From assembly GCA_963737635.1 (NCBI GenBank), contig CAVTTL010000001.1, forward strand, positions 1,376,001 through 1,440,000: DNA of 64,000 nt, in the 5' to 3' direction. Source of the DNA: an uncultured Methanoregulaceae archaeon. Its GTDB lineage: Archaea > Halobacteriota > Methanomicrobia > Methanomicrobiales > Methanospirillaceae. The notes under the pieces were generated by a model. The model saw nothing but the letters and a program-made list of their open reading frames with translations, was not told the DNA's origin and did no database searches. Positions within the stretch are counted from its first letter, which is position 1, and each line of letters begins with the position of its first letter. Positions 7,355 through 34,994 of this stretch are shown piece after piece. Position numbers and translations under genes: made by a program.

Positions 7355-7380
7355 TGTGGCATTAGTCCCCTGCAGCATCA
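7355..7380 (-). repeat. degenerate copy of the 3' half (C'-guide-D-stem) of the box C/D sRNA at 34936-34994
   Basis: tgtggcattagtcccctgcagcatca matches 34935-34960 tgtggcatcagtcccctgcatcatca at 24/26; the two mismatches fall in the D and C' boxes. Confidence 0.75.
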
Positions 7381-7502
7381 CCGTTTTACCCAAAAAAATG
7401 TTCATCGGGACACAAATATCCCATCGGTTTGACTTCCAAAAAAACCGCAGTTATGACAAGGTTTATGCAAAAATCTGCTCCATATAGCCACTGTTGGATT
7501 TC

Positions 7503-8024
7503 ATGAAAGCATTTGTTCTCTGCCCCGGTATCTGTATTCTCCTCCTGATCGCTGCTATAACGGTGGCAGGATGCATCTCAAACGAAAAATTACCGGGAAC
7601 TCCCCCGGCTGTGACAGAGATTTCCTCGACAATAACCGGGGAACCCTCTGCAAACACGACCTCATGCCCGATTCCCTCGTTATCTTTCAATGATACCCAG
7701 GAAAAAACAATAATACGGTACGGTTTCAGCCTGACAAACGCCAGCCCTGACTACCAGATACCCTATGGATCCATCATCTACCATGCACCAGACGGGACCA
7801 CGAGGGTTTTTGATCAGGATGGGAGACAGCTGCTTATTGCCAATGATTCTGACAGCATGTCCCCCACACCCGGTGGCTATAAACCTGCCACCCGGGTTCT
7901 TGGCACCCCGAACGGGGCTCTCATTATGGGTGGGGGAAACATGACCCACATATATCTTAACGGAACGTGCATCGCGACCGTTATAGATGCAACCGCTGCT
8001 CCCACGTCAGCAGATCACTCCTGA
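7503..8024 (+). CDS. putative lipoprotein / secreted hypothetical protein
   Basis: Hydrophobic signal ending in lipobox-like VAGC; Thr/Pro-rich linker. Confidence 0.7.
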   Translation: MKAFVLCPGICILLLIAAITVAGCISNEKLPGTPPAVTEISSTITGEPSANTTSCPIPSLSFNDTQEKTIIRYGFSLTNASPDYQIPYGSIIYHAPDGTTRVFDQDGRQLLIANDSDSMSPTPGGYKPATRVLGTPNGALIMGGGNMTHIYLNGTCIATVIDATAAPTSADHS

Positions 8025-8105
8025 TTTTACCACGGAGAATCTTAAAGAGGCTGTGGGGACAATACTGGATATCTCAACGAGAATACTGCACGAGGACTGT
8101 ATATC

Positions 8106-8822
8106 ATGAGCACAATACCCCCATTTAAGATCAAGCTCTATGCGGATGGTGCCGATCTCGACGGCATGATCGAGGAGTACAAAAAAGGGATCGCAAGCGG
8201 TTTTACGACCAACCCGACCCTTATGAAAAAAGCCGGGGTCAAAAGTTACGAAGATTTCGCAAAGGCTGCCCTCAAAGCGATTCCGGACCTCCCCATCTCA
8301 TTCGAAGTTTTTTCTGATGACCTGCCCGGGATGGAACGCGAAGCCCGGAAGATCGCTGGCTGGGGAAAGAACGTCTATATCAAGATCCCGGTGACCAACA
8401 CCAAAGGCGAAAGCACAGCACCGCTCGTGAAAAAACTCTCCCACGACGGTTTGAAACTGAATGTTACCGCTATCCTGACCCTCGACCAGGTAAAGACCGT
8501 GGCAAAGGCCCTTTCCCCGGATACTCCGAGCATCGTTTCGGTGTTTGCCGGTCGTATCGCGGATACCGGAAGAGACCCGATGCCGATCATGAAAGATGCC
8601 GTGAAGATCCTCAAGCCCTTGCCGAAAACTGAACTGCTCTGGGCAAGCACCCGCGAGCTGCTGAACCTCATCCAGACTGAGTCCTGCGGCTGTCACATCA
8701 TCACGATCACGAATGATATCTTAAAGAAGGTCCCGCAGGTGGGTAAAGATCTCAGCCAGTTGTCACTCGAGACCGTGCAGATGTTTTACTCCGATGCGCA
8801 GAGTGCCGGATATAAAATTTAA
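8106..8822 (+). CDS. short transaldolase (Tal/FSA family)
   Basis: GFTTNPTLM, YIKIP, NVTA, SVFAGRIADTG, LLWASTRE motifs. Confidence 0.9.
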   Translation: MSTIPPFKIKLYADGADLDGMIEEYKKGIASGFTTNPTLMKKAGVKSYEDFAKAALKAIPDLPISFEVFSDDLPGMEREARKIAGWGKNVYIKIPVTNTKGESTAPLVKKLSHDGLKLNVTAILTLDQVKTVAKALSPDTPSIVSVFAGRIADTGRDPMPIMKDAVKILKPLPKTELLWASTRELLNLIQTESCGCHIITITNDILKKVPQVGKDLSQLSLETVQMFYSDAQSAGYKI

Positions 8823-8933
8823 TTGAAAACTTGAAACTTTTTTAAGGAATACATTGGATGACGTTGATCTTGTAGATGGTTTATGTGCTGATTTAATTCG
8901 CATGGTCTTTGACACATAAACCCAAGTAAGAAT

Positions 8934-9826
8934 TTAGGACAAATGGATTTCACTATTTTTAAAACTCGCCAATCTCTGTCTAGCTAGATTCAAGTACTGG
9001 TGCAATCTTACATCAACAAACATCATTACCATTGACAATGCTACCACATACATCAAATAAATGGGGATGCCTGCCGTTCTTCCGATTGGTAATAGAGGGA
9101 ATTGTACTAAAAAAACATAAAAACTGAGTTCCCCGAAATACGAGATAATTCCTGTTTTATCTATGTATTTTGGATACCACGATTGTTTAACGATAAAGAT
9201 GCCCAAGCCGAAATAAAAAAGATCATCTAATGGAAACCAAAATACACCCATAGCATCCAGAATTCCAGTAAGAATGTGTGTATTTATATAATATGTTGAA
9301 CATGCACTAATAACAAAAAGGCATGCCAATGTCACGTATGGGTTACTATTAATTGCACGGCTAAGGAACGGGTAAATGAGATAATATAAAACGAAGATCC
9401 CTATGCACCACCCGGCATTATTTAATGGCCCTCCCAGTTTCCGTTTCCCGTGAAAGCATTAAACCCGGAAAACTGCCAGAATAAATTCCCAAGGTTAGTG
9501 TTGTTAGAATATAGAAGTAACATTGCTCCCAATAAAAGACTCATCCAATATGCAGGAAAAATTCGCAACAACCTACGGATTTCAAAACGGATGTACGATA
9601 TACTTGAATCTATATGTGATTTATTTAGTTCCAATACCGCTCCACTGACGAATAAAAATATCTGAACCCCGATAATTCCCATCCCAAGATAAACTAATTC
9701 GCCAAGCCAAATGTCGGGCCCATCGCGAACGCCGAAGATATTAATATAGATATGACACGCAACTACGAGGCATATTGCCAAAATACGCAGAAAATCAAAA
9801 AAAATTAATCTTGGTTTAGATGACAT
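8934..9826 (-). CDS. acyltransferase 3 (OafA-like) membrane protein, split by a 1-nt frameshift near 9433
   Basis: FFDFLR..., FLFVSG, RRLLRIFPAYW; adding one G gives continuous WGGPLNNAGWCIGIFVLYYLIYPF, matching the paralog at 25561 (WGGPINPILWFIGLIVALYLLYPF). Confidence 0.8.
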
Positions 9827-10320
9827 GATATCTTCAAAATTTTCACAAGCACAAGAAAATGCTGCGCAATCGCAAACTGGTAGAATTTAATCTATATGTT
9901 GTCCAGAACATAATACTAATTGGTTGATATTTCTCCAGACCTCTCTCACACTTCAAAATAACTCGAAATAATGTTTTACGGCACTATAGAAAAAGGTAGC
10001 GTACTCGAAGTGCCATAAATGTGAATTGGAAGTAATGATGAATACAGGGTATCCTCACTTTTTACAGCACATCGTATGCGCCACTCTTATACTAAGGCGG
10101 ACTTCCTTTAAGGGCTATTTACCATCTGCGTTCGTTGATTCATATGTACTTCGAAAAAGTTCTGGTTGGTTCTGCGTGTGATATCCCGAAAACATTTCTA
10201 CCTTCACTCTACCAAAGAATACTCGAAAAGTGCCACCGCATTTTCTTTCTATAATGCTTGATTCCTCGAATGGTATGCATCTACAAAACCATATAATTAC
10301 TAATTTCCATAAACACGATC

Positions 10321-12570
10321 TTAGTTATCACTGTTAATGGTCATACGAGAAATGCTAATGAAAAAGTTTCGTTTTTCCAAAGGATCTGTTATGTCCCCTT
10401 TTTCAAGATCTAAATTACCAAATTTTATTATGTTCATACCTGGTTTTATTTCAAATGTTGCCACAACTGTTTGTTGATTATTCAAATGAATTATTATAGG
10501 TGTCTGTGGGTCTCCTTCGATCATTGATAATTGGATTGTATTTATTTTATCCCGTACGGTATTTTGTTCACTTGGAATTGCAACAAATGATATGTTGACA
10601 TTAATATCCGATTGAAATTTTGAAAAAATAATTAAATTGAAGTCTTCTCCCAACCAATTCCAATAACCTGTCTGTTCCGACCCATCCAATCCTTCTGGGT
10701 TATTAATATACACAATTAAATTCTGATATAAATTTGGTGAAGTAATTTTGGGATAGTCATCCCCAATTGAAATTTTCACAGCCGATTGTGGGAATTTTGC
10801 AGGATCATTAAAGGAATAATTACTATTATCCAATGTGACATCACCTATTTGATTATTAATAAAAAAGATATTGTCCTGCCGGCCATGATATGCCAACCAT
10901 GCTAACGTATCTGGATTGGGTTCAGAGAGAATAAAATCTAGATTCTTAGTATTTTCTAAATAATTATATGTATTTTGCATTTTTTCTGAATTTGACCACG
11001 TCACTGCACTCCTCCCTCCGCCAGATATTGAAAATGAGGCTAAATAGAAGGTAATTGAAACAAATGCTATTAATGTACCAATTAAAAGTATTTTTGGCAA
11101 TGCTAACAATATTTTCTTCAGTAAAGTATTCTGAATTGAAATATGGAAGATACTTTTAAAATTATATGAAGGAGAATCCGACAATAAAATCCACAATCCT
11201 AGTACAAGAATCGGGGAAATTGACGTTAACATTTTAAAAAATGGATAGGGATAGGGATTCGGCATAGAAATAAAAACTATTGGAAAAAGAGAAAGGAAAA
11301 GAAGTTGTAATGATACAATATCCTTTTGTTTTCTAAAGAGGTTTATAAGACCTAAATAAGATAATATCATGAAAAAAATTGAAACCAATAAAATTATCGC
11401 TATTATTAAATCATCGTTAAGGGTAAATGCTTTATATCCGAACCATAAAAAACCCAAGCCGTCAATTTTCAAAGCAAATGGGTAAATAGAATCAAGGATC
11501 CCCGGGGGTGCATGCACAATTGCATTAATAAAAATAATACTCCTTTCAACATAACCAAAGTTTATTAAAAATCCCAAAATCAAAACAACAGATATTTTTT
11601 TGATCGAAGATTTAAAGGATCCGGTTTGAATGACATAACCGATCAGACCTATAATTGATACTAGGATAAATATCAATGTAAATTCTGTATAAATGGAATG
11701 TATTCCAGCAAAAATTACAATTCCAATTAATACATATTTTATGTCATTTTGTTTTAGAAGATTCTCTATCACTATTGGCCATAATAGAAGAAATGGAATA
11801 ATCATCGATTGAGCTAAAAAATTTTGAAGTTGAACCAGCGCGAACCCAGGAAGACAAGATGCTGCAATTGCCGAACCGTATTGCGCCCATTCATTTTTAA
11901 TAAATCTTTTTGAAAGCAAATAAGCCGATAGAGAGGTCAAAAATGGACTTAATAATGAAATTGTACCATAAAGAGATTTTGCATTAGATTGTCCTAAAAC
12001 TGAGAAATAGCCTTGTAATATCGACACACCTATCCGAACATCTTTCAATCCAATTGCTCGAACGAGATATGGGATATTTTGAACATCCATAAAAGTTGTG
12101 CTAAATGGTTTATCGATTAAAAATTGAGCAATGGCAACGTAATTATATTGATCTATCCAACCGTACCCAATATAATTTTCAGCCCCAAGCAACCAATATC
12201 CAAAGCCTTGGACTATAATTACAATAAATCCCAGCAAGAATATATTTTTGGGGAAGTCAGGTATATCTTTCCGAGATCTCTGGTAAATATAACAAAAAAT
12301 AACAAAAAAAAGAATAAAAAAAGGAAATGCTGATAAAGATAATGGAATATCGAGATATACCAAACTTTGTAAAATTATAATCGTAATCGATATACCGAGA
12401 AACGGAGCAAATATCCAAAAATAGGTCTCCTTACTTTTCTGTGGTATAATAAAATGAGCCAAAACGATTCCTGGTATCAAAATCCCAATTAAACTGATTA
12501 TTAATAACAAAGATGAAATAAGTATGTTATATATTATTGACAAGAAATTCCCCGTCGTTACAGTGTACAT
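10321..12570 (-). CDS. large polytopic membrane protein, putative GT-C-fold glycosyltransferase
   Basis: About 13 hydrophobic segments, Asp in first external loop (WIDQYNY), soluble C-terminal domain; AT-rich; next to gtrA/gtrB-like genes. Confidence 0.6.
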   Translation of the reverse strand: MYTVTTGNFLSIIYNILISSLLLIISLIGILIPGIVLAHFIIPQKSKETYFWIFAPFLGISITIIILQSLVYLDIPLSLSAFPFFILFFVIFCYIYQRSRKDIPDFPKNIFLLGFIVIIVQGFGYWLLGAENYIGYGWIDQYNYVAIAQFLIDKPFSTTFMDVQNIPYLVRAIGLKDVRIGVSILQGYFSVLGQSNAKSLYGTISLLSPFLTSLSAYLLSKRFIKNEWAQYGSAIAASCLPGFALVQLQNFLAQSMIIPFLLLWPIVIENLLKQNDIKYVLIGIVIFAGIHSIYTEFTLIFILVSIIGLIGYVIQTGSFKSSIKKISVVLILGFLINFGYVERSIIFINAIVHAPPGILDSIYPFALKIDGLGFLWFGYKAFTLNDDLIIAIILLVSIFFMILSYLGLINLFRKQKDIVSLQLLFLSLFPIVFISMPNPYPYPFFKMLTSISPILVLGLWILLSDSPSYNFKSIFHISIQNTLLKKILLALPKILLIGTLIAFVSITFYLASFSISGGGRSAVTWSNSEKMQNTYNYLENTKNLDFILSEPNPDTLAWLAYHGRQDNIFFINNQIGDVTLDNSNYSFNDPAKFPQSAVKISIGDDYPKITSPNLYQNLIVYINNPEGLDGSEQTGYWNWLGEDFNLIIFSKFQSDINVNISFVAIPSEQNTVRDKINTIQLSMIEGDPQTPIIIHLNNQQTVVATFEIKPGMNIIKFGNLDLEKGDITDPLEKRNFFISISRMTINSDN

Positions 12571-12823
12571 ATTAGGGCAGGTATTGTTAAAAAGTTTGGG
12601 TATTGTATAACCGTGAATTTTAAGGGATAAAGTTATATAGTGTGATTTAACCAAGACGGTTTTCAAATTGTAAATCGTTGGTATAATGTAAATTCAAGGT
12701 TTGTTCCCAATCTCAAGTCATCATGATTCGGGAACATATTAACTGTAGTGGCATGTCAATTGCGAAGTTCCCTAAGCGTCTTACTGGAAAGATTCATTTT
12801 TGATCGCTAGACCGGATTATACA

Positions 12824-13213
12824 TTATTTGAAAACGAATTTTTTATTGATAGTATATCCCCAGATAAAACTGATAACAATCTGAACCACTTTTGCTATGA
12901 TGGGATTCATGTGAAGGAATTCCACGCAAATGATGAGAATTAGATTGTTAAAAATATAGGTCACAATTACAACGGATACAAATTTCGTAAAGAGAATGGC
13001 ATTTTTTTCGCATTGATAGCGAAAAGTCCAATTTTTCTGGAGATAATAAACCGCAAGAGTGCCTATGGAAAAGGAAATCGCATTCGAGACAAGAAAATTG
13101 AGAGATGTAAAACTAATGAGGAGAGAATACAACCCAAAATCAATGCATGCGCCGATACCCCCGGCAATCCCATATTTGCAAAACTGACGGAAGGTGTTTT
13201 TGAATACATCCAT
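12824..13213 (-). CDS. GtrA-family flippase-like protein
   Basis: QFCKYGIAG..ID, QKNWTF, AKVVQI...YTINKKFVF; 4 TM segments. Confidence 0.88.
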   Translation of the reverse strand: MDVFKNTFRQFCKYGIAGGIGACIDFGLYSLLISFTSLNFLVSNAISFSIGTLAVYYLQKNWTFRYQCEKNAILFTKFVSVVIVTYIFNNLILIICVEFLHMNPIIAKVVQIVISFIWGYTINKKFVFK

Positions 13214-13269
13214 CTTCTTATTCTCCAGATTATTCTGCTGTGAGAGAAACAATAACTAATCCCAAATGT

Positions 13270-14157
13270 CTAGGTTTTCTTTTTTAATGTAATTAAACAC
13301 CGGATTCCCCGGGGATACCGAATCATTCTTCCCAAGTTCAGTTCGAGTCTCATAAGAAAATAAAGAGCTTCGTTCATGACCGGTCCGCCTAACTGGATTA
13401 AATTTTTCACGGAATTCTGCGTTTCTAATTCAGTTTGTTTTGTCTTTTGCCTGTTCCGCAATTTCACGAAACGAAATGCCGGGTAAACAAAGAATCCCAG
13501 ATGCGAGGCACTCTGCACGGCAAATCCGGCATTTTCAGCTTTTTGGGACAACTTATCCAGTGCATATCTCCGGAAATGTTTGAGTTGTTTATCATAAAAA
13601 TCATACAAGTTGGGGCTGGCAGGTACTTCTATAATTGCATACCCGCCGGGTTTCAGGATCCGGTAAATCTGCCGTAACGCAGCGGAATCATCTTCAATGT
13701 GTTCGAGAACATTCAGCGCAACGACAACGTCCATGCAATTATCCGGCAGAGGACAATTGACCAGATCAAACTGTATCAATGGGATGTCGGGATGGTGTTC
13801 AGCAATTTTTCCCAATGGTTCCAGGATACAATCGGACCCTAGAATAAATGTCCCGGGAAAGGCATTTTTAATGTCCCGAAGCAGGTAACCGGATGATGAC
13901 CCGATTTCCAGCACTGCACTGTCTGCTGTCAGGTGTTTTCCCACTTCCCGGCAGGCGTGAAGACGTGAGGCACGATCGATGTAATGATTTCCTTGATCTG
14001 CCTCTTTCTCGTGGAAATCCGTGAGATCCGGAGTCCATCCGGCATTGCATGTGGTATATTGTAAGACGGATTTGTTTTCAGAGCCGATCTGGAATCCATT
14101 TCCCGTCCAGACCGGATCATCATGGTATCCGGGGGGGACGGGAAATTTGAATCCCAT
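13270..14157 (-). CDS. class I SAM-dependent methyltransferase
   Basis: VLEIGSSSG, LNVLEHIEDD, LKPGG, HFRRY motifs. Confidence 0.88.
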   Translation of the reverse strand: MGFKFPVPPGYHDDPVWTGNGFQIGSENKSVLQYTTCNAGWTPDLTDFHEKEADQGNHYIDRASRLHACREVGKHLTADSAVLEIGSSSGYLLRDIKNAFPGTFILGSDCILEPLGKIAEHHPDIPLIQFDLVNCPLPDNCMDVVVALNVLEHIEDDSAALRQIYRILKPGGYAIIEVPASPNLYDFYDKQLKHFRRYALDKLSQKAENAGFAVQSASHLGFFVYPAFRFVKLRNRQKTKQTELETQNSVKNLIQLGGPVMNEALYFLMRLELNLGRMIRYPRGIRCLITLKKKT

Positions 14158-15107
14158 CAGAGATTCTCCGTTTTTTCAACGATGTAGAGAGGGCGCTGTT
14201 TCACTTCTTCGTAAATACGCCCGACATACTCTCCCATGATCCCCAGCGAAAGGAGCTGGACACCCGAAAGGAACGTAATAAGAACAATTGTCCACGTCAG
14301 ACCCGGGGTCATTTCAGCCTGCAGTATCACTTTTTCAAAGAGAATCCAGAATCCCAGCAGAAACGCACCTACTGCAATGATTCCGCCTAATATTGTAGCG
14401 ACTTGCAAGGGACGAATCGAAAATCCTACAATACCGTTGAACGCGATCTTGAGTGAGCCCAGGTACCGGTTATAATTGGATATTCCAGATGCCCGTTCGT
14501 CTCGGTCATATTCAATAAATGTCTGTTTGAACCCGACAAATGAAACCATGCCTCGCAGGAAACCGTGAGACTCATGCAGTTTTTTCAGTTCATCGATGAC
14601 GCAGCGATCCATCAACCGGAAATCCCCGGTATCTGCCGGGATCGAGACATCCGAAATTTTATTGATCACGAGATAACCGATATGCGAAATCCATGTTTTG
14701 AAAAATGTTTCACCTTGTCGGGATCGTCTCTTTGCATAAACAACCTTGTAACCCTCGCGCCATTTTTCCAGCATCGGCTCAATCAATTCAGGAGGGTCTT
14801 GCAGATCCACATCAATAACTACGCAGACATCTCCTTTACAGAAATGGATGCCGGCGAGCGTTGCGGCGGGCTGGCCAAACCTCCGGCTGAATCGGATGAG
14901 ACGGATATTTTCGTTCCGTTTGATCTCGTCCAAAATGATTTTTTCGGTGTTGTCCGGGGAAGGATCGAGACAGAAGAGGATTTCATAGGGACAGCGGAGT
15001 TTTGTTAATATAGATTCCATTCTTTGCAAAAATGGTTTGATATTTGTTTCTTCACGATAAACCGGGACAACCACGGATATGATTGGATTGGCCAATATTT
15101 TGTTCAT
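14157..15107 (-). CDS. GT2 polyprenol-phosphate glycosyltransferase (GtrB/ArnC-like)
   Basis: SVVVPVY, SRRFGQ, IDVDLQDPPE, DTGDFRLMDR, two C-terminal TMs, GEYVGRIYEEVKQRPLY. Confidence 0.9.
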   Translation of the reverse strand: MNKILANPIISVVVPVYREETNIKPFLQRMESILTKLRCPYEILFCLDPSPDNTEKIILDEIKRNENIRLIRFSRRFGQPAATLAGIHFCKGDVCVVIDVDLQDPPELIEPMLEKWREGYKVVYAKRRSRQGETFFKTWISHIGYLVINKISDVSIPADTGDFRLMDRCVIDELKKLHESHGFLRGMVSFVGFKQTFIEYDRDERASGISNYNRYLGSLKIAFNGIVGFSIRPLQVATILGGIIAVGAFLLGFWILFEKVILQAEMTPGLTWTIVLITFLSGVQLLSLGIMGEYVGRIYEEVKQRPLYIVEKTENL

Positions 15108-17327: not shown

Positions 17328-17384
17328 GATCAGGTTATCGTTTGACAATATAAAATATGAGGATTTTAATTCTGAATAATCACG

Positions 17385-25200: not shown

Positions 25201-25339
25201 GGACGCGTGTACCGTAGTTGATTCGCAGATGCATTAAAAATATCGAACACGGGGGACGAGACCTGCAATATCGAACAAGGATGCAGCCATGATCAAAAGA
25301 AATACAGACAAATTCCAAAACTTAAAAAGAGGAATTTCT

Positions 25340-25505: not shown

Positions 25506-25560
25506 GTATGCTACCTCTAATCAATGGATGTAAATTCAATGATCATTTAATTAGATTAAG

Positions 25561-26442
25561 ATGATCAAGATAAAATCGCGTTTGTTATTTTTTGATTTGC
25601 TTCGGATAGGGTGTATCGCAGCGATAGTTTGTGATCATCTTATCCATCTCGGTTGTATAACCTTGCCGGGGTATCTTGAATTTCTCGGCGTTGTTCGACC
25701 CTACTTTGGGGGGGCATTTTGGTTATCACTTGGAAACTTAGGTGTATATGGTCTTATTTTTGTGAGCGGGGCTGTTCTTGCATTCACACATCCAAAGGTG
25801 GATAATTTATTTGAATTTTTCAAGAGACGATTAATACGGCTGTATCCAGTGGTTTGGATGAGTCTTGTCGTTGCATTATTAATAACGCCCACTTTGATCA
25901 CTTCAGTCACTGTACGTAACTGGATCCTTAGCATAATTGGAATGACAATTTACGCCGGGGAGTGGGGCGGACCGATTAATCCCATCTTGTGGTTCATCGG
26001 CCTTATCGTCGCTCTTTATCTGCTCTACCCATTTATAGCAAGATTCATCGATAAGTCACCACATGTCGCGATGGGGGCCATGATTCTAATCTCTGTGCTC
26101 TCGACGTTTGTTATTGTTTATTTCAACTTAGATCCATCGATTAATGGGCCTCAATGCATGCCGAGATGGTTGTTCCTTTGCAACCTCATGGAATTCGGTT
26201 TCGGAGTTTATATCGTGAAAATGGGGATATATCCAAAAATAACGTATACAAACCCCGCTATAAGCTATCTTGCAGAATTATCTTTTTGTATATTTTTATT
26301 CGAATACATTTTAATTGGAATCGGGCTCGTCAATTTAGGTTTATATTTTTTCATGCTTTTTGTTATCAGTGCAGCTGCATTGAATATCGACAAGCAGATT
26401 CAGCAAAAATTCAAACACTATTTTAAGGTCTCTGAGGGATGA
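25561..26442 (+). CDS. acyltransferase 3 (OafA-like) membrane protein
   Basis: FFDLLR, IFVSG, KRRLIRLYP, LWFIG...YLLYP; ~9-10 TMs. Confidence 0.88.
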   Translation: MIKIKSRLLFFDLLRIGCIAAIVCDHLIHLGCITLPGYLEFLGVVRPYFGGAFWLSLGNLGVYGLIFVSGAVLAFTHPKVDNLFEFFKRRLIRLYPVVWMSLVVALLITPTLITSVTVRNWILSIIGMTIYAGEWGGPINPILWFIGLIVALYLLYPFIARFIDKSPHVAMGAMILISVLSTFVIVYFNLDPSINGPQCMPRWLFLCNLMEFGFGVYIVKMGIYPKITYTNPAISYLAELSFCIFLFEYILIGIGLVNLGLYFFMLFVISAAALNIDKQIQQKFKHYFKVSEG

Positions 26443-26601
26443 ATGATCGAAAGACCTCTACTTCCTCATGAGCTGAGGATGCTACGCATTTCTGTTGGCG
26501 TTTCTTCTGCACGATGGAAAATATCGATCACTTGTATCGGTAAGGAACCGATCTAACTCATGGGCCTAACGTACGGTCCAGCGATTTTTCCGGGTCTATG
26601 A

Positions 26602-27369
26602 TCAGATGAAATCCCGGATATCCTTTTCGAGTTTTTTGAAGATCGCGTAATCCAGAACGATCAGCACCATACTTGCGCCGAGAACAATCGAGAGATAAAA
26701 GAACGAGGGCATCTGCTGGTAGACGAAAATATCATGGTATGCCGACACAACGGCAGTCATAGGGTTCCAGATCAAAATTCGCTGTACAACTGCAGGAAGA
26801 ATATTAAAAACGTACACGATGGGCGTAAACCAGAACCAGATCAGGAGCGCGATCGTAACAACCTCCTTGAGGTCCCGGAGAAAGACCACAAACATCGCCA
26901 GAAAAAATCCCAGCGCATAGGCAAACACCTGCTGTATCAGATAGATGACCGGGATCAGCAGCAGGTACCAGGAAAGAGGAACCCGGAAAAAAAGAATGAT
27001 CAAAAAGAATATCACAAAGGTTACGACGAACGTGATCGTTTCCGATATCACAATAAAGAGGGGGAGCGTGGGAAGGTCCATGTGGATCTTTGCGATGATA
27101 TTTTTCTTGTCCAGAAAGACCGTTGAGGACCGGGTGACCGTGTTGGTAAATGCAGTCCAGGGAATAAGACCAGAAACGAGGTAGACCCCGTAGCCCCAGA
27201 TCGAGGTATTACCTGCCAGCCTCGCCCCCATCAGGCTCCCGAAGACGACCATGTAGATGAAGATGTTGACCAAGGGGTAGATGAACGACCAGACAAACCC
27301 GAGCACTGAGCCTGAGTACCGCTCGATAAAATCCCGTTTTGCAAGTTCAAGAATCAGGCTGAAATTCAT
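26602..27369 (-). CDS. wzm: polysaccharide ABC exporter permease
   Basis: RYSGSVLGFVWSFIYP, FLRDL, WFWFTPIVY, WNPM. Confidence 0.92.
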   Translation of the reverse strand: MNFSLILELAKRDFIERYSGSVLGFVWSFIYPLVNIFIYMVVFGSLMGARLAGNTSIWGYGVYLVSGLIPWTAFTNTVTRSSTVFLDKKNIIAKIHMDLPTLPLFIVISETITFVVTFVIFFLIILFFRVPLSWYLLLIPVIYLIQQVFAYALGFFLAMFVVFLRDLKEVVTIALLIWFWFTPIVYVFNILPAVVQRILIWNPMTAVVSAYHDIFVYQQMPSFFYLSIVLGASMVLIVLDYAIFKKLEKDIRDFI

Positions 27370-27437
27370 GGGGGTGTCCCTCTCTTTTGCAGGGATTGTA
27401 TCCGGATGGATCGGATGTACGGGATGTTCAATCTTTC

Positions 27438-28532
27438 TTAATTTTGCCGGTCTTGAGTATCCCTGATCGCTTCCCGGATTCTCCCGGCAAACACCGGAAT
27501 ATCGAACTGCTCCGCACGTTCGCGGCAGGCATCCCGGAAATACTCTCCATCCCTCTCGGAGATTTCTCGTATGCCTTCGATGATTCCCTCAGGAGTTGCC
27601 TCAACCAGCCTCCCGGTCATCGTGTCTACTACGGACTCGAGGAAACCGCCTTCCCGTGGCGCAACCACCGGTTTTCCCGCAGCCATCGCTTCGAGAGGGG
27701 TCATCCCGAAATCCTCATCCATTGCAGTACAAATGAGGCCTTTGCACCGTGAATACAGGTCGATCAGCTCCTCATCGGAGACCGATCCAAGCAGCTCGAC
27801 GTTCACCGGGAGATGGGCAAGATATCCAAGGTTCTTTGCAGCGTGATCCCCCGGACTGTATCCTCCGACAATTTTAAGATGTTCATCAGGGAGCCTCCGG
27901 AATACTTCTATCTGGAGGGGAATTCTCTTCTCGGGGTACAGCCGGTTGACCGAGAGCCAGTATGCGGTTTCATTACTGTAACGGAACTTTTTTGCATCGA
28001 CCGGGGGGTAAATAACCATCGCATCGCGGTGATAAAATATGGCGATTCGCTTTTTTGTATTTTCGCTGTTGGTTACAATTCTATCAATCCGACGTACAGA
28101 TCTTCCATCAAACCATGAATGCAGGGAGATCCAGATCTTTGCAACGATACGGTGCACCGGCGTTTTCTGATTTTTAAGGAAATACGCTTTCAGATCATAA
28201 AAAACCCGGACAGGTGTGTGACAGTACCACATGTTCGGATGGTGATTGCGGGAGGCATAATGTGCCCAGTTCCCGCTGAAGATGAAAAAATCGTACTCCG
28301 GAAAACGGGATAACGCGAACTTGAACGATGCATGAATCTGTTTGAAGGGGGGTGTCTGGATAACATTTCCTAAACTGATCACCCTGACATCGTCGAATCC
28401 CATACAGTGAATGGATTCCCGGTTTACATCTGAAGTAATAATATCTGCACCCAGTTCACGCGCAAGGATCAATACGAGACGTTCCCCCCCGCCAATCGCA
28501 CCAAAATAATCGTGGAAGATCGCAACTCTCAT
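27438..28532 (-). CDS. glycosyltransferase family 4
   Basis: HDYFGAIGGGER, EDFGMTPLEAMAAGKPV. Confidence 0.9.
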   Translation of the reverse strand: MRVAIFHDYFGAIGGGERLVLILARELGADIITSDVNRESIHCMGFDDVRVISLGNVIQTPPFKQIHASFKFALSRFPEYDFFIFSGNWAHYASRNHHPNMWYCHTPVRVFYDLKAYFLKNQKTPVHRIVAKIWISLHSWFDGRSVRRIDRIVTNSENTKKRIAIFYHRDAMVIYPPVDAKKFRYSNETAYWLSVNRLYPEKRIPLQIEVFRRLPDEHLKIVGGYSPGDHAAKNLGYLAHLPVNVELLGSVSDEELIDLYSRCKGLICTAMDEDFGMTPLEAMAAGKPVVAPREGGFLESVVDTMTGRLVEATPEGIIEGIREISERDGEYFRDACRERAEQFDIPVFAGRIREAIRDTQDRQN

Positions 28533-28538
28533 GGCCGT

Positions 28539-29537
28539 TCAGCTGGTTTTTACCTTAGTTTCTTCCGTGAGCACGCGCTGATCCCAGTAATCGTAGAGAG
28601 ACAACAGACTCTGCTCGAAGGGTATCGCCGGTCCCCAGCCCAGATCCCGCCGTATCTTATCGTTACTGCCGATAATACGGGGATTGTCGATCGGACGGAT
28701 CTGCGCCTGCTCCTCGTGCACGCTGACGTTCAACCCTTTAAGATCCGCAAGCAGGGCCACGATCTCCCCTATGGTCCGGCCCGTACCGCTGCATATGTTA
28801 TAGACCTCCCCGCGTTTTCCTTTCGAAAGAAGGAGAACATAGGCGGCGACGACATCGTGCACATCGACGAAATCGCGCACAATAGACCCATTGCCAATAT
28901 GGATCACGGGATCCTGGAGGCCGTGGGCAATTCTCGCAAACTGCCGGGCGATAGCGCTTACTACAAACCGGTCGCTCTGGCCCGGGCCGCAGTGGTTGAA
29001 CGATCGCGTGCAGCAGATGTCAAGGCCGTACCCTTCAGCATAAATTTTCGCGAGCTGCTCCTGGGCCACCCGCGCAACCGCATAGGGATTTGCCGGATGC
29101 TGGGGGGTAGTTTCGGTTAATGGCAGGTCAGCGGCAGCGACAATCCCGTACTGTTCGGACGACCCGATCGAGAGCACCCGCGCACCGTTGTCGTTCTGCC
29201 GGACAGTATCAATGATATTTAAAAAAATATTGGTGTTGTTCATGAACGAAAAGACCGGCGTCTTCCAGCTCTCGGCAACGGAGCTTTGGGCCGCCAGGTG
29301 GAGAATATACTCCGGTTGAATCTCTTCAAGAAGCGATTTGATGGTAGGAATATCGAGCAGGTCTGCCTGGTGGAAATGGGAGCCGTTGCGCAGGCTCAGG
29401 CCACGGGGTACAAAATCCCATGCCGGTTTTGAGCGGCTGATGCCGTGGATCTCAAACCCGTTCGTATGATCTTCCAGGTAGGAGACAAGATGCCCCCCGA
29501 CAAAACCGCTGATACCGGTAATCAAGAGTCTTTTCAT
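28539..29537 (-). CDS. GDP-mannose dehydratase-family SDR, most like GDP-4-dehydro-6-deoxy-D-mannose reductase (Rmd)
   Basis: ITGISGFVG, HLAAQSSVAESW, GSSEQYG, RSFNHCGPGQ, VRDFVDV; the YxxxK motif reads YAVAR. Confidence 0.75.
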   Translation of the reverse strand: MKRLLITGISGFVGGHLVSYLEDHTNGFEIHGISRSKPAWDFVPRGLSLRNGSHFHQADLLDIPTIKSLLEEIQPEYILHLAAQSSVAESWKTPVFSFMNNTNIFLNIIDTVRQNDNGARVLSIGSSEQYGIVAAADLPLTETTPQHPANPYAVARVAQEQLAKIYAEGYGLDICCTRSFNHCGPGQSDRFVVSAIARQFARIAHGLQDPVIHIGNGSIVRDFVDVHDVVAAYVLLLSKGKRGEVYNICSGTGRTIGEIVALLADLKGLNVSVHEEQAQIRPIDNPRIIGSNDKIRRDLGWGPAIPFEQSLLSLYDYWDQRVLTEETKVKTS

Positions 29538-29754
29538 ATTGGTCTCCTTTTCGCGCCGCATGAGAAAACGGATGTAACGCCGAAATAACCCCGGTATTTT
29601 CCCGTATCTTATCTATTCGTCATTTCACTCACATGAACATTCGCGTCACTTTTTCCAGTCTCCCCGATCCTTTGTTCCCCTCTTTTCCTATGGATTTATT
29701 GAACAAAACAGCCATTATTTTCATACCTCTTTCAATCGTATACAGGACACACAC

Positions 29755-30906
29755 ATGGACACCTCAAGCGGATTCCCGGTCGACGTCTCAGTCATTATGC
29801 CCGCTCTGGATGAAGAGCAGACGATCGGCGAGTGTATCCGCAAGATTCAGTCAGTGTTCCAATCAAACGCTATAAGCGGCGAGATCATCGTTGCCGATGC
29901 CTCAACGGACAGGACAACGGCGATCGCGGAGTCGCTTGGCGCGCGTGTCGTTAAACCGGGGAAACTCGGGTATGGCAACGCGTACCTCGCCGCGTTCAAA
30001 GAAGCGCGCGGCCGGTATATCGTTATGGGCGATGCCGATAACACCTACGATTTTTCGGAGATGCCACAACTCCTCGCGCCACTGAGGGACGGTGCCGATT
30101 TCGTTATCGGTTCCCGGTTCACCGGGAGTATCCATGCAGGTGCGATGACCTCACTCCACCGGTACATCGGTAACCCGCTGCTCACCTGGATGATCAATAC
30201 GATCTTCCGTACCCGTTTCACTGACACGCACAGTGGGTTTCGCGCGATCACCCGCGATGCGCTGGACCGGCTCAACCTGGCAACCGGGGGCATGGAGTTT
30301 GCGTCAGAAATGCTCGTTATGGCCTCAAAAGAAGGCCTGAAGATCGTAGAAGTTCCGGTCAGTTATTATCCCCGGAAAACGCCCTCAAAACTGCACAGTT
30401 TTGCCGATGGCTGGCGCCACATCAGGTTCGTGCTGCTCATGAAACCCCTCCCGTTTCTTGCCATACCGGGCCTGTTGTTCTCGCTGGTCGGGCTGCTTTT
30501 GATGACCTTTTTTGCTCTCGAGGGCAATGTTGAGTCTTCCCACCTCCACATCTTCATCGTCGGCGCCATTATGATCATGGGTGGTTTACAGGTCATCATT
30601 ACCGCATTTTTGATGAAGACGTATTCGGTCATCCATGGATACGAGACCAAAGCGGGTATCATCACGCTTGTTATGCAGTATAGCACCCTGGAAAAATTTC
30701 TCGTGCTTGGCATCATCCTTATCCTGGGGGGTGTCATCCTTGGCCTCAATATCCTGATCCAGTGGATTTCGGTCAGTTTTGGCGTGCTCTCCGAGATATC
30801 CACCGCTATTATTGCCCTTGTCCTGATCGTCACCGGGATGCAGGTCTTTCTCTTTGCCATCTTCCAGAGCATGATGCTCTTAAACGAGAACACCAGCCAT
30901 GCCTGA
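29755..30906 (+). CDS. GT2 dolichol-phosphate glycosyltransferase with C-terminal TMs
   Basis: VIMPALDEE, GYGNA, MGDADNTYD, DTHSGFRA, MEFASEM. Confidence 0.88.
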   Translation: MDTSSGFPVDVSVIMPALDEEQTIGECIRKIQSVFQSNAISGEIIVADASTDRTTAIAESLGARVVKPGKLGYGNAYLAAFKEARGRYIVMGDADNTYDFSEMPQLLAPLRDGADFVIGSRFTGSIHAGAMTSLHRYIGNPLLTWMINTIFRTRFTDTHSGFRAITRDALDRLNLATGGMEFASEMLVMASKEGLKIVEVPVSYYPRKTPSKLHSFADGWRHIRFVLLMKPLPFLAIPGLLFSLVGLLLMTFFALEGNVESSHLHIFIVGAIMIMGGLQVIITAFLMKTYSVIHGYETKAGIITLVMQYSTLEKFLVLGIILILGGVILGLNILIQWISVSFGVLSEISTAIIALVLIVTGMQVFLFAIFQSMMLLNENTSHA

Positions 30907-30916
30907 AGGGGACCGG

Positions 30917-32051
30917 ATGAAGATCGCGTTTGTGTACGATGTCATCTACCCGTACGTGAAAGGCGGCGTGGAAAAACGGGTGTGGGAGCTTGCGGTGCGG
31001 CTTACCCGGCGGGGCCACGAAGTACACCTTTTCGGGATGAAATTCTGGGACGGGGATGATATCCTTATTCACGAGGGTGTGATCCTGCACGGAGTCTGCC
31101 CGGCACGTCCCCTCTATGCCGGGGGCAGAAGGACCGTAGGGGAAGCGATCCATTTCAGCCTCCGGCTCATCCCGCACCTGGGAAGGTACCGGTTCGACAT
31201 AATCGACTGCCAGCAGTTTCCCTTTTTCTCATGCCTCACGGCAAAAGCACTCACCGTTTTCAAAAAAACGCCGCTCGTTATTACCTGGCACGAGGTCTGG
31301 GGCGATTACTGGTACGTGTATCTGGGCCGGTGCGGGGCGTTTGGCAAGTACATCGAACGTCTCGTGTCCCGGATCACGCCACATGTGATCGCGGTTTCAA
31401 CGACCACCAAAGAACAGCTCGGTACTCCTAGGTGGCCCGGAAACTATCAGGATCCTACCCAATGGGGTGGATAGGAACCGCATCGCCGCAATTTCCCCCG
31501 CAGCCGACCGATCGGATCTCATCTTTGCCGGACGCTTGATCCGGGAAAAGCATGCAGACCTGCTGGTCCGGGCGTTTGCACTCCTGTCAAAAGAGCAACC
31601 GGCGCTCACGCTTCAGATCATTGGTGACGGGCCGGAACGGGAGCCGCTTCTGCAGCTCGTCCAGGAATGCGGTATCGGGGACCGGGTCATTGTCCGGGGT
31701 TTTGAAGCGCGGCACGACGACCTGATCGCGCGGATGAAGGCATCAAACGTCTGTGTCCTGCCCTCCACCCGGGAGGGATTCGGGATCACTGCTCTCGAAG
31801 CGCTTGCCTGCGGGCTCCCGGTTGTCACCATCGATCACCCGGCAAACGCGATACGGGATCTCATCACGGATAAAAATGGTTTTCTCTCTGCCCTTTCCGC
31901 AGAAGATCTTGCCGACAAGATGCGCAAAGCGCTCGCTCACCACGAGGAGATGCGAGAGGCATGTGCCGCAACTGCGGCAGCATATGACTGGGATCGTGTC
32001 GCAGCAGAGTGTGTGGAGTATTACCAATCGGTGAATGCAAAAAAAGAGTGA
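30917..32051 (+). CDS. glycosyltransferase family 4, split by a +1 frameshift near 31420
   Basis: YPYVKGGVEKR (5' part); removing one base restores IRILPNGVD and joins AGRLIREK...STREGFGITALEA. Confidence 0.85.
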
Positions 32052-32053
32052 TT

Positions 32054-34729
32054 TCAGGAAACCTGGTTGCCCTGGATCACATCGTCCTCGGTCACGTTGA
32101 TATACCGGGTGGTCCCGTCAATATGGTACGGCCCGGTTGCCCTGACGTCGTACGGTGAGCCTGACGTGGGATAGGGTACGTCAAACATCCCGTTCTCGCT
32201 TGCCTGCCGGTAGACAAACATCCGTCCCGTGTTGGTAACGACCGGAACCTCGATGATTCCGTCACCGGTAATGGGTGCCCCTTTGACGTACTCAAAAACC
32301 TTAACCGTTTTTATATTGGGGAGGGTGACGGTTTTCGATTCCGGAAATGCCGTAATGGTTGCATTACCCGGCGATTCGTGAACAAGCCGGTAATGTTCCA
32401 GGGCTGGAACGGTTGCGACCGGCGCGTTCGGCAGACTGGAGTAAAGGCCGGCATAGTTCGATGCGGAGAGTGACTGACCCTCCGGTACGAGCGTGAGATT
32501 GCCCGTACCATTGGAAATGTCGACCGGTACATCACCGGAAATCACCCTCGCGTACCCGTTTACATCGCCGGCAGACTCTCCGGGGGCCGGCACCTGTCGG
32601 ATCTGGTACTGGACGTATTCCACGTTCGTGGGCGTGGTCATAGACCCGTCAAAGTTGTAAAGCCGGGAGATCGTGGTCTGGAAATACCCGTTGTTAAACC
32701 GGTGGACTGTGTCCAGGACGTTGGTGTTACCGGGCTCCGGGAGCACAAACCACGTGATATAAGGCGAAATATCGGTTGAGCCGTCCGCCCAGGGCACAAG
32801 GTTGGTGAACGTATCCACCGCGAGGTTTGAATCGACGACGACATACCGACCCCCTAGTCCGGCAAGGATGGCATCTGCCTGCGACTCGTTCTGCCGAAGG
32901 AAATACGCGGCAGCCCCGTTGTTTCCGGCAAGGTTGTCCTGGAACGGGTTTGTGATCGGGATCCGGTGCGCGAAGAACGTGATCCAGTTGCCTGCATCCC
33001 ACGATGCCATGACCCCGTAGGAGGCGTTGGGGTACACGTATCCGGAAGACGGGTATTCACCGAAATAATCGACGCCGGTGGCAGGTGTCGAATTGCCAAG
33101 CCAGGTGACCGATTCGATCCAGTCCGGTGACAGTTCATGATCCGGGGTAGAACGTCCCAATTCAAGATCCTTGTAGACGGAAACGCCGATAAGACCAACC
33201 GTAAGGAGAAGAACCAGTGCCAGGCAGAGGATCTTAATCTTTCCAGGGATTTTCCTGGTCTCCTCCCGGGATTGGGGTGATTTCTTTTTTCTGCCTTTGC
33301 GGTCGGGAGAACCTGCAGGTTTTTCCGGGGCGTTTCTCTCACTATCAGGTTCTGCGGTTGGAACCGGGACAAACCGGGTCACTATTGATGAGATTTGTGC
33401 ACGCACTCCGGCATCCTGCCAATGGAAGGTCTCTGTGATACAGATGGCACTCAAAAGAACGATGTTGACCGTACTGTAGTAGTCGAACCGCTGGTACTGG
33501 ATGGTAAGGAGGAGCACTACGACCGACCAGATCAAAAGAAAGATCCATTCGGCCTTTGGTTTTTTTATGATGGAATACCCAAGCACCAGGAATCCGCCTG
33601 CTGTGAGGAAGAGGGCAAGCCCGAAGAAGTCCCATGCCACCGGCAGGGTAAGGGGGAGTGTCTCTACAACCCCCACCGAAAACTGCATGGAGCCAAAAAT
33701 GAGATCGTAGGCCTGCTGCCCTATCGCGGTAAACGGTGGGTACAGGAAAAGTGCTATAATCCCGGCCCCTGCGAGAATCACGAGGCTGAGCAGGTACGGG
33801 AGTTTCTTTTTGCAAAATATATGGGAAAGTGCAAAAAGCGCGATGGTTTCAGCGAGCAGTGCGAGGTGGATGTATACCAGTCCGGGCGAATACTGCGTGA
33901 TCGAGAGCCCGGTCGCATGAAACCCAAAAAGGACGAGAAGTGCGGCCGAAAGTAAAAGGAAGATCCCGTTCGCAATCAGCAGGTCGCCGGACGAACGGCC
34001 GGTGCAGTGATCAAGGATGCACTGTACCAGCGTGTAGATGCCGATCACCACGAGCATCAGGATTACGGTCGGGGATGCGAGAAGCGCGCAAAAAAAGCAG
34101 ACCCCGGCAAGGGCGGCAAGCAGGATCGGCATATACAACGTACGGAGGTTTTTCCTGTCAATGTCCTGTTTTCGTGCATATACGATCGAGGAGAGGTAGA
34201 GCAGCACAAAAATCGTGCTGATGAACGTTTCAGCGATGTGGTGGCTGATCAGGCCGTACGATGAGAGAAAGAAATAGTGATAGGATACGACAGCGACAAG
34301 CCCGGCAGCAACAAGCCCGGTCTGCCAGTCCCGGATCGTTTTTCCCGTGTAGTACATAACCGGGACCATGAGGGCAGCCATGATCGGTGAGACAAAACCG
34401 GCCACAGAAACGATGGAAGCATGCGAAGTGGCCCCGGTGATCAGGCAGAGGACTGCAACGGTAAAGGGATATAGCGGCCCCCAGTCGATAAATTTCCCAG
34501 TCGGATAGGCAGTCATCGGGTCATACCAGTTGTACTGAGGGAAATGGTGCACCATTACTTCGATTTGGCGCAGGGTATACCAACCGTCCGTGTCAAAGGT
34601 ATACAAAAAACCGGTATCCTTGATAAACAATGCAGGAATGAGCCGGAGAAAAAGGGCAACTGCCATAAAAATGAGCAGAATGAGTACAAGACCGGTTCGT
34701 GATTTCCAGTTCGGTATAGTGAGACGCAT
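32054..34729 (-). CDS. aglB: STT3/AglB oligosaccharyltransferase family protein with atypical motifs
   Basis: DGWYTLR, YDPMTAYPTG, HHIAE, QRFDYY, RIPITNPFQ, LEHYRLVHES; the WWDYG position reads SWDAG. Confidence 0.88.
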   Translation of the reverse strand: MRLTIPNWKSRTGLVLILLIFMAVALFLRLIPALFIKDTGFLYTFDTDGWYTLRQIEVMVHHFPQYNWYDPMTAYPTGKFIDWGPLYPFTVAVLCLITGATSHASIVSVAGFVSPIMAALMVPVMYYTGKTIRDWQTGLVAAGLVAVVSYHYFFLSSYGLISHHIAETFISTIFVLLYLSSIVYARKQDIDRKNLRTLYMPILLAALAGVCFFCALLASPTVILMLVVIGIYTLVQCILDHCTGRSSGDLLIANGIFLLLSAALLVLFGFHATGLSITQYSPGLVYIHLALLAETIALFALSHIFCKKKLPYLLSLVILAGAGIIALFLYPPFTAIGQQAYDLIFGSMQFSVGVVETLPLTLPVAWDFFGLALFLTAGGFLVLGYSIIKKPKAEWIFLLIWSVVVLLLTIQYQRFDYYSTVNIVLLSAICITETFHWQDAGVRAQISSIVTRFVPVPTAEPDSERNAPEKPAGSPDRKGRKKKSPQSREETRKIPGKIKILCLALVLLLTVGLIGVSVYKDLELGRSTPDHELSPDWIESVTWLGNSTPATGVDYFGEYPSSGYVYPNASYGVMASWDAGNWITFFAHRIPITNPFQDNLAGNNGAAAYFLRQNESQADAILAGLGGRYVVVDSNLAVDTFTNLVPWADGSTDISPYITWFVLPEPGNTNVLDTVHRFNNGYFQTTISRLYNFDGSMTTPTNVEYVQYQIRQVPAPGESAGDVNGYARVISGDVPVDISNGTGNLTLVPEGQSLSASNYAGLYSSLPNAPVATVPALEHYRLVHESPGNATITAFPESKTVTLPNIKTVKVFEYVKGAPITGDGIIEVPVVTNTGRMFVYRQASENGMFDVPYPTSGSPYDVRATGPYHIDGTTRYINVTEDDVIQGNQVS

Positions 34730-34935
34730 GGGATTCCTTTAGGCGCATTCTTTCTGTGCGGGTTCACATCGGTTTAATTGTCCGGATCGTTCTCTCATTG
34801 TAACACCATATATATTGTGAAACGATAGTGCCTGGCTTGGAATGAGATCTCTTAAAACCGGAAACCAGATTTGTCTAAACTATCCGAAGAACAACGGGGC
34901 AGGAATTCCAATTCGATTGATTCTTTAAAGCAAAT

Positions 34936-34994
34936 GTGGCATCAGTCCCCTGCATCATCATGAATCAGTGGGGGTAACTTTCATCACTTGCCAC
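34936..34994 (-). ncRNA. box C/D guide sRNA; D' guide antisense to 23S rRNA helix 69
   Basis: Minus strand GTGGCA-A-GTGATGA(C)-AAGTTACCCCCA-CTGA(D')-TTC-ATGATGA(C')-TGCAGGGGA-CTGA(D)-TGCCAC: four consensus boxes, 6-bp terminal stem, upstream TATA-like TTTTATATA. Confidence 0.92.

Follow-up and report, generated by a model that had tools for sequence, protein, structure and literature searches.

Genomic islands and proviruses stand as a rule at the 3′ ends of tRNA and transfer-messenger RNA (tmRNA) genes, as stated, with reference to Williams 2002, in the consulted part of a review of archaeal tyrosine recombinases (PMC8371274). The same part of the review describes the pTN3-like integrases of Thermococcales as unique in using a 5′ half: their chromosomal attachment site (attB) is the 5′ half of a tRNA gene, which is re-expressed from the element. 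The archaeal targets that it names (2021) are tRNA genes, protein genes and intergenic sites, and the term 'sRNA' occurs 0 times in this portion. Here we describe a locus in the genome of an uncultured Methanoregulaceae archaeon at which a box C/D small RNA (sRNA) gene, that is, a guide RNA gene, appears to have been the integration site. The window, the whole 64,000-nt stretch that was analyzed, corresponds to C1:1376001-1440000 of a 2.46-Mb genome. A surface-glycosylation island of about 27.5 kb that ends in aglB, which encodes the archaeal oligosaccharyltransferase, lies between the intact sRNA gene and a second copy of its 3′ end, and comparison with related genomes (our labels for genomes begin with G, those for loci with L) widens the finding, as judged from sequence, to genus-wide use of this one C/D sRNA gene as an integration site.

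Archaeal sRNA genes have themselves been seen to move. In Pyrobaculum they are reported to be duplicated, composite, transposed or similar to miniature inverted-repeat transposable elements (the consulted part of PMC6009581). Half-copies of C/D sRNAs and sRNA genes at points of genome rearrangement are common to that genus, as described in this text, and to our locus. There, the sRNA genes themselves are reshuffled, and the word 'integration' occurs 0 times in the consulted text, whereas here blocks of 3-28 kb of foreign or relocated DNA are inserted in one sRNA gene and an integrase accompanies it in 11 genomes. In our literature searches, to which ~1.7 million PubMed Central articles and the supplements were not open, no paper came up that presents a C/D sRNA gene in the role of attachment site. 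No work combining 'box sRNA' with 'attB' was found, and the combination of box sRNA with integrase topics gave general works on archaeal integrases. The ryeA/ryeB small-RNA locus of Salmonella is said to be an insertion hot spot. It reportedly resembles the present locus in that a small non-tRNA RNA gene is duplicated in part at the borders of acquired DNA; it differs in that the gene encodes a bacterial regulatory sRNA, not an archaeal guide RNA of a ribonucleoprotein.

The 3′ 26 nt of the sRNA (34935-34960, TGTGGCATCAGTCCCCTGCATCATCA) recur at 7355-7380 (TGTGGCATTAGTCCCCTGCAGCATCA) in direct orientation, at 24/26 identity and a start-to-start distance of 27,580 nt. The original prediction, made from the letters of the window, had claimed this repeat, with both mismatches in boxes and the left copy just after apgM, and reading the letters directly together with a pattern search bore it out. 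On the sRNA strand, the C′ box TGATGA has become TGATGC and the D box CTGA has become CTAA in the left copy, which begins 13 nt past the apgM stop codon (7339-7341). The pattern search of the window, allowing up to 3 mismatches, returned exactly these two sites and no match in any of 100 shuffles. Across the whole genome (2,460,051 bases in 4 contigs), up to 6 mismatches again gave only the same two sites; this count, which had been proposed as a check, rules out a dispersed multi-copy repeat. Of copies of the 3′ half, the 107 other genus genomes contained one more, in an unrelated Kelch-repeat ORF (open reading frame), and the 3′-half pattern had no match in viral contigs. The one further copy is a 24-nt stretch of contig 142 of G081 (L041, 4969-4992), 23/24 identical to the sRNA 3′ half and in sense orientation. 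It lies inside a 513-amino-acid (aa) ORF on a contig of 6.6 kb, the bin is 7% contaminated, and there is no link to the sRNA locus.

The sRNA has the layout of a box C/D RNA. From the 5′ end, the stem GTGGCA is followed by the C box GTGATGA, the D′ guide of 12 nt, the D′ box CTGA and a short loop; then come the C′ box TGATGA, the D guide, the D box CTGA and, as the 3′ strand of the stem, TGCCAC. A full-length match is present in 98 of the 108 genus genomes, and further matches lie in other families of the order. From genomes and metagenomes we extracted 150 distinct sequences with a pattern that requires intact boxes. The D′ guide measures 12 nt in all 150 of these, and the D guide 9 nt in 148 when TGATGA is taken as the C′ box; moving C′ by 3 nt makes the D guide 12 nt long. 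The terminal stem has four near-invariant pairs. Pair 5 is formed in 110/150 sequences (by CG, TA, TG, GC, GT or AT) against a shuffle maximum of 96, and pair 6 in 92/150 against a maximum of 89. The alignment thus indicates that the outer stem is kept by compensatory changes and argues for an archaeal box C/D sRNA. A 10-nt exact complement to the D′ guide is present in large-subunit (LSU) rRNA at 1952-1961; for the D guide, neither LSU nor small-subunit rRNA had a match with fewer than 2 mismatches in 9. No Rfam family covers the sRNA in a search at the gathering score, and the sole Rfam or ARAGORN match in the window is a tRNA-Val(TAC) at 893-964 on the minus strand.

To locate the corresponding site in relatives, the 108 genus genomes were searched for the sRNA and the C-terminal half of apgM, which lie on one contig in 96. 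The gap between them is -1 to 39 nt in 95/95 other genomes, and 27,586 nt in this one only. The original prediction had asked whether apgM directly adjoins the sRNA in strains lacking the block, and had named the absence of an empty site together with a conserved apgM-tal-aglB order as the outcome that would count against it. The site is empty in every one of the 95 genomes that could be judged, and the apgM-tal-aglB order is kept in none of the relatives. Adjacency of apgM and the sRNA extends to other families of the order (G026, G031, G032), with a gap of ~350-420 nt in G036 and G027. The left flank, consisting of pyruvate-ferredoxin oxidoreductase subunits, two ORFs, an epimerase and apgM, is syntenic in the genus and beyond. 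On the right, relatives with an unoccupied site go directly from the sRNA to orc1/cdc6 and mch, this flank beginning ~100-250 nt from the sRNA 5′ end. Relative to this arrangement the present genome has two additions, island A (7388-34934) at the 3′ side of the sRNA and ~8.5 kb (34995-43467) at its 5′ side. The insertion and its exact place are, like the repeat and the empty sites, direct observations.

The left copy can be traced beyond the repeat. It resembles the sRNA alleles of the closest relatives over 33 nt (7355-7387), 7 nt more than the 26-mer, the nearest alleles being those of G003, G015, G118 and G054. In the alignment with relatives' sRNAs the likeness runs through CACCGTTT, the C′-D′ loop, and breaks at the D′ box. 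As the left copy stands where the 3′ end of the resident gene is expected and has the local allele, this stranded copy is the end of the old gene. Its box mutations were seen in 0/150 of the distinct intact sRNAs, a set selected by a pattern requiring intact boxes. At the aglB end, the loop of the intact sRNA differs from that of the nearest relatives, and its 5′ flank is AT-rich, unlike the flank of relatives with empty sites. These features indicate that the working sRNA gene at the aglB end was imported, at least in part.

In another genus of the order (g5), the interval between sRNA and apgM is ~2.2-2.4 kb in G028 and G033 and 22 kb, with glycosyltransferases, in G038. Glycosyltransferase genes stand on both sides of the sRNA in this genus and at metagenome loci L114, L150 and L166. 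We did not count G028, G033 and G038 as independent 3′-side insertions, as no sRNA fragment lies beside apgM in them (L027-L030). The pattern may represent an older, separate association of the sRNA locus with glycan genes.

The 5′ half of the same gene is also duplicated, and there, in part of the genomes, with an integrase. Of the 108 genus genomes, 15 have partial 5′ copies made up of the stem, the C box and the beginning of the D′ guide, this genome among them (38429-38458). Where the contig permits, their distance from the intact gene, with which they share the strand, is 3-11.5 kb, and G104 has two in tandem. Alignment of 12 fragments showed at least 10 joined to one conserved ~45-70-nt module in which the guide region is repeated in inverted form. 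Fragments at the outside retain the resident promoter and the inner ones have an AT-rich flank, for example in the tandem array of G104; judged by these flanks, the pattern is the one that integrations one after another at a single site produce. In G067, an ORF with a Phage_integrase domain (PF00589, E 2e-14) starts ~50 nt from the sRNA. Homologues with at least 62% identity lie within 170 nt of the sRNA 5′ end in 11 of the 108 genomes (G001, G006, G023, G043, G044, G067, G082, G091, G102, G107 and G111) and nowhere else; some contain a stop or are split, and one is a remnant. All other integrase matches had at most 46% identity and were at other places. The protein is a generic tyrosine recombinase, which scores below the cut-offs of the NCBIfam XerA, XerC and XerD models. 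The elements, of 10 kb in G082, 8.8 kb in G102, 5.8 kb in G067 and 11.5 kb in G107, have at their borders 20-22-nt repeats of the first bases of the sRNA, and that of G107 also encodes a D5-type primase and a PolB fragment. This integrase was next to the sRNA at 5 of 80 metagenome loci, which had been found by the 3′-half pattern.

Inserts of the same geometry that contain only cargo carry metallo-beta-lactamase-fold proteins and a sulfate permease (G021), glnA, amt and PII (G009), kdp (G104), an esterase and phosphatases (G095) and, in this window, flavin mononucleotide (FMN) reductases, PNPOx and an ArsR-type gene. Within 1.5 kb upstream of cdc6, 80 Methanoregula-type loci (L215-L294) contained a full sRNA in 48 cases, only a 5′ fragment in 12 and neither in 20. 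The count is rough, as 4 of the 12 fragments lie at the locus edge and are possibly cut full copies, and some loci have less than 1.5 kb upstream; roughly, something sits between the sRNA and cdc6 in about 4 in 10 genomes. Taken together, the sequence comparisons show the C/D sRNA gene to be an attB, at its 5′ half, of a dedicated tyrosine-integrase clade. The elements of G067, G082, G102 and G107 have the features of 5′-half targeting, namely an adjacent integrase, the repeat and a displaced half that bears the promoter. Since the old 5′ half is displaced with its promoter, the restored sRNA must be transcribed from element DNA. These elements share with the pTN3-like ones an integrase ~50-100 nt from the restored RNA gene and the displacement of the old 5′ half and its promoter. 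They differ in having a C/D sRNA gene as target, and the likeness is one of behavior, the integrase being known only as a generic PF00589 protein.

Considering that the sites are empty in relatives and that integrase elements use the 5′ half of this gene, the earlier proposal that the C/D sRNA gene served as an attachment or recombination site is supported. Island A shares with islands at tRNA and tmRNA 3′ ends that the RNA gene is intact on one side and a 3′ fragment is displaced to the downstream flank on the other, as well as empty sites in relatives and accessory cargo for surface structures. It differs in its target, a box C/D sRNA, in the lack of an integrase in the island and of a second case, and in the decay of the fragment. 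We propose that the ancestor had the sRNA gene tail to tail with apgM and upstream of orc1/cdc6, and that in the lineage of this genome the 3′ part of the gene took up the 27.5-kb N-glycosylation island. The incoming DNA would have carried, or the event would have copied, the last 26-33 nt of the sRNA. This would have left a complete, predicted functional sRNA at the aglB end and the old 3′ end stranded by apgM, where it would then have lost its C′ and D boxes. The mechanism would most likely be conservative att-type recombination, as at tRNA 3′ ends, the recombinase having either worked in trans or disappeared later. That island A entered by recombinase-mediated att-type integration is, in our assessment, the probable course of events, held with moderate confidence. 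We infer that the 3′-side event, like those at the 5′ half, was recombinase-mediated and that the island came from another Methanoregula lineage. Att-type recombination explains the intact gene, the 3′ fragment at the downstream flank, the 95 empty sites and the unique repeat, and the geometry is that of tRNA-type islands: both borders have a direct repeat derived from the RNA gene, one of them has the gene intact, and the sites are empty in relatives. As there are elements whose att sites copy this sRNA, a second, 3′-directed specificity is plausible.

Several results weigh against recombinase-mediated entry. As the original prediction had cautioned, no intact integrase lies inside the block: a six-frame search of the whole genome with PF00589 gave 3 matches, none of them inside the island or the window, and the G067 integrase as a query against island and window returned noise only. 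Serine recombinases and transposases were covered solely by Pfam scans of called ORFs. The island ends have no inverted or arm-type repeats, in contrast to the 5′-type elements, and share no repeat of 9 nt or more with each other or with the sRNA except one 9-mer. A second 3′-half insert was not found in the 107 other genus genomes or the 80 metagenome loci, and the island ends had no match in 294 loci or in the metagenome and genome collections; thus, there is no attP, free form or sister island. A 30-nt string from the left end matched no metagenome or genome contig, although these collections may omit records of this genome. In contigs of four public runs, which covered the right one of the two island junctions, no contig joined across the island, and no joint of excision or of skipping either the right junction or the neighboring 5′-side insert B1 was seen; as only contigs were used, this does not speak for the absence of such joints. 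Loose contig ends at 34933 were rejected as signs of excision, as they come from a co-occurring relative of the G090 type. The 7 extra nt of the remnant fit a 26-nt core only if the crossover was at the inner edge or the incoming allele was similar. The other caution of the original prediction, host-like G+C in part of the block, applies at both island ends. In addition, the transaldolase gene tal is a gene-sized duplicate, with 94.3% nt identity over 741 nt, of G000:C1:148301-149041, part of a further glycan locus on this chromosome. Because of the host-like ends and this in-chromosome copy, the block is at least partly home-made or reworked.

The same observations lend weight to a joining event that needed no site-specific recombinase, in which donor DNA with its own sRNA entered by homology-facilitated illegitimate recombination. 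The source would be a fragment of another Methanoregula chromosome, or a plasmid, anchored at one end in sRNA or cdc6-side homology and at the other by microhomology at the resident sRNA loop, and the 26-nt repeat would be a mere overlap of the donor sRNA with the leftover of the recipient. The absence of an integrase and of arm sites in the island, its host-like G+C at the ends and the uniqueness of the event among 108 genus genomes and 80 metagenome loci would all follow. The foreign loop and 5′ flank of the intact sRNA and the local 33-nt remnant fit an imported gene beside a resident remnant, and intragenomic copying has been active in the block, as the tal and B1 paralogues indicate. Such a donor must, however, have had aglB right downstream of its sRNA, where 95/95 relatives have apgM, so that the problem is only moved. 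The geometry is moreover exactly that of att-type integration at an RNA gene, and this gene, at its 5′ half, is already proven as an att site. We consider illegitimate joining unlikely, but it is the alternative to be taken most seriously. A local origin of the repeat is far less probable. The left copy would in that case be a half-mer paralogue from duplication of an sRNA module, and the glycan genes would have accumulated between the copies by unrelated events. Modular duplication of sRNA halves is documented for Pyrobaculum (PMC6009581, consulted part), and the composition of island A is composite. The left copy is nevertheless at the orthologous position of the resident 3′ end and has the local allele, which marks it as the old gene end; its boxes are broken, and no intermediate exists in any of the 95 relatives, none of which has anything between apgM and the sRNA.

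We do not believe that the repeat is a chance match or an artefact of assembly, an explanation to which we attach next to no probability. The assembly does contain single-base errors: all four public runs lack one base at 31421 and one at 35190 relative to the window, which shows that the window assembly has indel errors. The glycosyltransferase family 4 (GT4) gene that is split into 30899-31474 and 31467-32051 (span 30899-32051) is probably intact, the split being an assembly error. The repeat is a different matter, as no shuffle gave a match and the genome has 2 copies, and as a misjoin at a repeat would yield identical copies and not one that is truncated and mutated. Contigs from runs of three studies, one run possibly being the source sample, run from aglB through the sRNA into the FMN reductase gene with 0-1 differences, and the right island junction is therefore not an assembly artefact. 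This independent support covers the right junction alone, which counts among the weaknesses of the case for integration.

A more ambitious proposal, which we put forward tentatively and think rather doubtful as a whole, is that this one Methanoregula C/D sRNA gene is a two-sided integration platform, with the integrase clade acting at the 5′ half and a second, unseen recombinase at the 3′ half. The integrase clade would recognize the stem, C box and D′ guide, and each element would bring a new 5′ half and promoter. The 5′ elements would build tandem arrays and leave integrase-less cassettes of oxidative-stress, kdp, nitrogen-assimilation and hydrolase genes, perhaps still moved in trans. The second recombinase would recognize the C′ box, D guide and D box, and the 27.6-kb aglB island would be its stranded element. 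If this is true, cells could swap one type of surface glycan for another in cassette form, with a guide-RNA gene as the docking point.

With a C/D guide RNA gene as attB, the range of integration targets would gain a new class. Like tRNA genes, the C/D sRNA gene is short, conserved, internally repetitive and can be rebuilt by an element. It also provides a practical marker, as a search next to this sRNA turns up mobile elements and accessory islands in Methanoregula. Members of this genus are major methanogens of peat and wetland soils. With the time order and exact borders of a gain of surface glycosylation fixed, exchange of N-glycan type between strains becomes testable.

Table 1. Features of the sRNA locus in window coordinates.
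Feature	Position	Strand	Basis and remarks
apgM (cofactor-independent phosphoglycerate mutase)	6064..7341	+	Pfam PhosphMutase/Metalloenzyme; NCBIfam PRK04200 and apgM above cut-off; conserved left flank
Decayed 3′ remnant of resident C/D sRNA	7355..7387	-	Loop, C′ (TGATGC), D guide, D (CTAA), 3′ stem; 7355-7380 is the left repeat copy
Island A, N-glycosylation/surface-glycan block, 27.5 kb	7388..34934		GC profile, Pfam, absent at the site in 95/95 relatives
176-aa ORF without family, lipoprotein-like N-terminus, small secreted-type	7494..8024	+	Weak lipobox-region Pfam match, E 7.7e-4, below cut-off
Transaldolase (tal)	8106..8822	+	Pfam TAL_FSA; TIGR02134 above cut-off
Low-GC variable core	8934..27369	-	Pfam, NCBIfam; one acyltransferase-3 gene on + strand
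Genus-level agl cluster Wzt-Wzm-GT1-(4,6-dehydratase/epimerase)-GT2-GT4-aglB	23959..34729		Order conserved in relatives
aglB, archaeal oligosaccharyltransferase	32054..34729	-	Pfam STT3, AglB_core-like, AglB_L1; TIGR04154 682.9 bits vs cut-off 450
Intact box C/D sRNA	~34994-34936	-	Boxes, 12-nt D′ guide, stem; 3′ 26 nt (34935-34960) are the right repeat copy
Insert B1, cargo only: two FMN reductases, PNPOx, MTH865-like, ArsR-type helix-turn-helix (HTH)	34995..38428		Pfam
Displaced sRNA 5′ fragment and element-end module	38385..38458	-	Fragment 38429-38458: stem, C box, first 10 nt of D′ guide
Insert B2: catalase and heme-synthesis-like genes	38467..43260	+	Pfam
orc1/cdc6 and mch	43468..45621	+	Pfam, synteny; conserved right flank

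The content of island A agrees with the earlier description of a secreted-type ORF, a transaldolase, glycan genes and aglB between the two copies (Table 1). Its G+C content is ~0.48-0.51 at 7-9 kb, 0.29-0.48 at 9-27 kb and 0.51-0.59 at 27-34 kb, compared with 0.516 for the genome. The 176-aa ORF had no NCBIfam match and has three distant paralogues in the genome, at 31-37% identity. A close homologue of tal (79%) was present in just 1 of 40 relatives sampled. The low-GC core encodes split acyltransferase-3 pieces, two ~780-aa proteins without family, a GtrA-like protein and two methyltransferases, as well as GT2, GT1, a GT1-GT2 fusion, Wzt, an acyltransferase-3 and Wzm. Based on AglB/STT3, glycosyltransferases of the GT1, GT2 and GT4 families, a 4,6-dehydratase-type enzyme, Wzm/Wzt and a GtrA-like protein, the island is classed by its predicted products as an agl (N-glycosylation) cluster.

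The order of the cluster recurs in G008 and G016 at 50-76% aa identity, and in parts in G006, G019 and G001. In G008/G016, G019, G001 and G006 it adjoins different host genes, and its position in the chromosome varies. The aglB of the island is the third paralogue in the genome, the other two being ~37% identical by tblastn and 39% by genome search, and a search of four of the closest relatives (G003, G004, G015 and G020) did not reveal the island-type class. Island A is thus an agl island that is mobile, or can at least be relocated, and that has undergone local reworking as well. Variable agl gene clusters stand next to aglB in archaea. Like them, island A has aglB at the edge of glycosyltransferases, sugar enzymes and a transporter, and a low-GC core; the cluster of G019 is laid out alike. 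What sets island A apart is that its place and borders are fixed to the base by the RNA-gene repeat and 95 empty sites.

The homologous aglB cluster of G001 (L060, contig 139, 11797-14832) starts ~290 nt past the 3′ end of a tRNA-Thr(CGT). A tRNA-type repeat around it was not confirmed, as the 48-kb contig contains no tRNA fragment; the island possibly runs off the contig. Within island A, three tandem 45-nt units (23585-23719) lie in a 387-aa ORF (22641-23804), and one contig of run X4 lacks one unit (joint 23584 to 23630), a length polymorphism in a gene of the glycan island.

The ~8.5 kb at the 5′ side of the sRNA consist of two inserts. B1 is flanked by a 46-nt direct repeat (34971-35016/38429-38474; 83%) and is absent at this place in relatives. 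Its PNPOx, MTH865-like and HTH genes (36523-38198) have a paralogous block at G000:C1:2033259-2034816, with 85% and 71% nt identity, which indicates that the cargo is related to resident genes. B2 is an oxygen-defence islet between the displaced 5′ fragment and cdc6, and is not found at this site in the closest relatives. Its catalase is read as two overlapping ORFs (38467-39345 and 39311-40018), a possible frameshift or assembly indel, and its heme-synthesis-like genes encode two radical SAM/SPASM proteins and a NirDL-like protein. In G107, a related ahb-like block stands beside the 5′ fragment in opposite orientation. On the sRNA strand, the element-end module (38400-38428 in the window; also L024, L036 and L043-L050) contains GGGGGTAACTATG. 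These letters agree exactly over 13 nt with LSU rRNA 1952-1964, where the target of the D′ guide lies. The displaced 5′ fragment could, on the basis of this motif, fold into a guide:target-like hairpin; the motif may equally be just a repeated integrase-binding motif.

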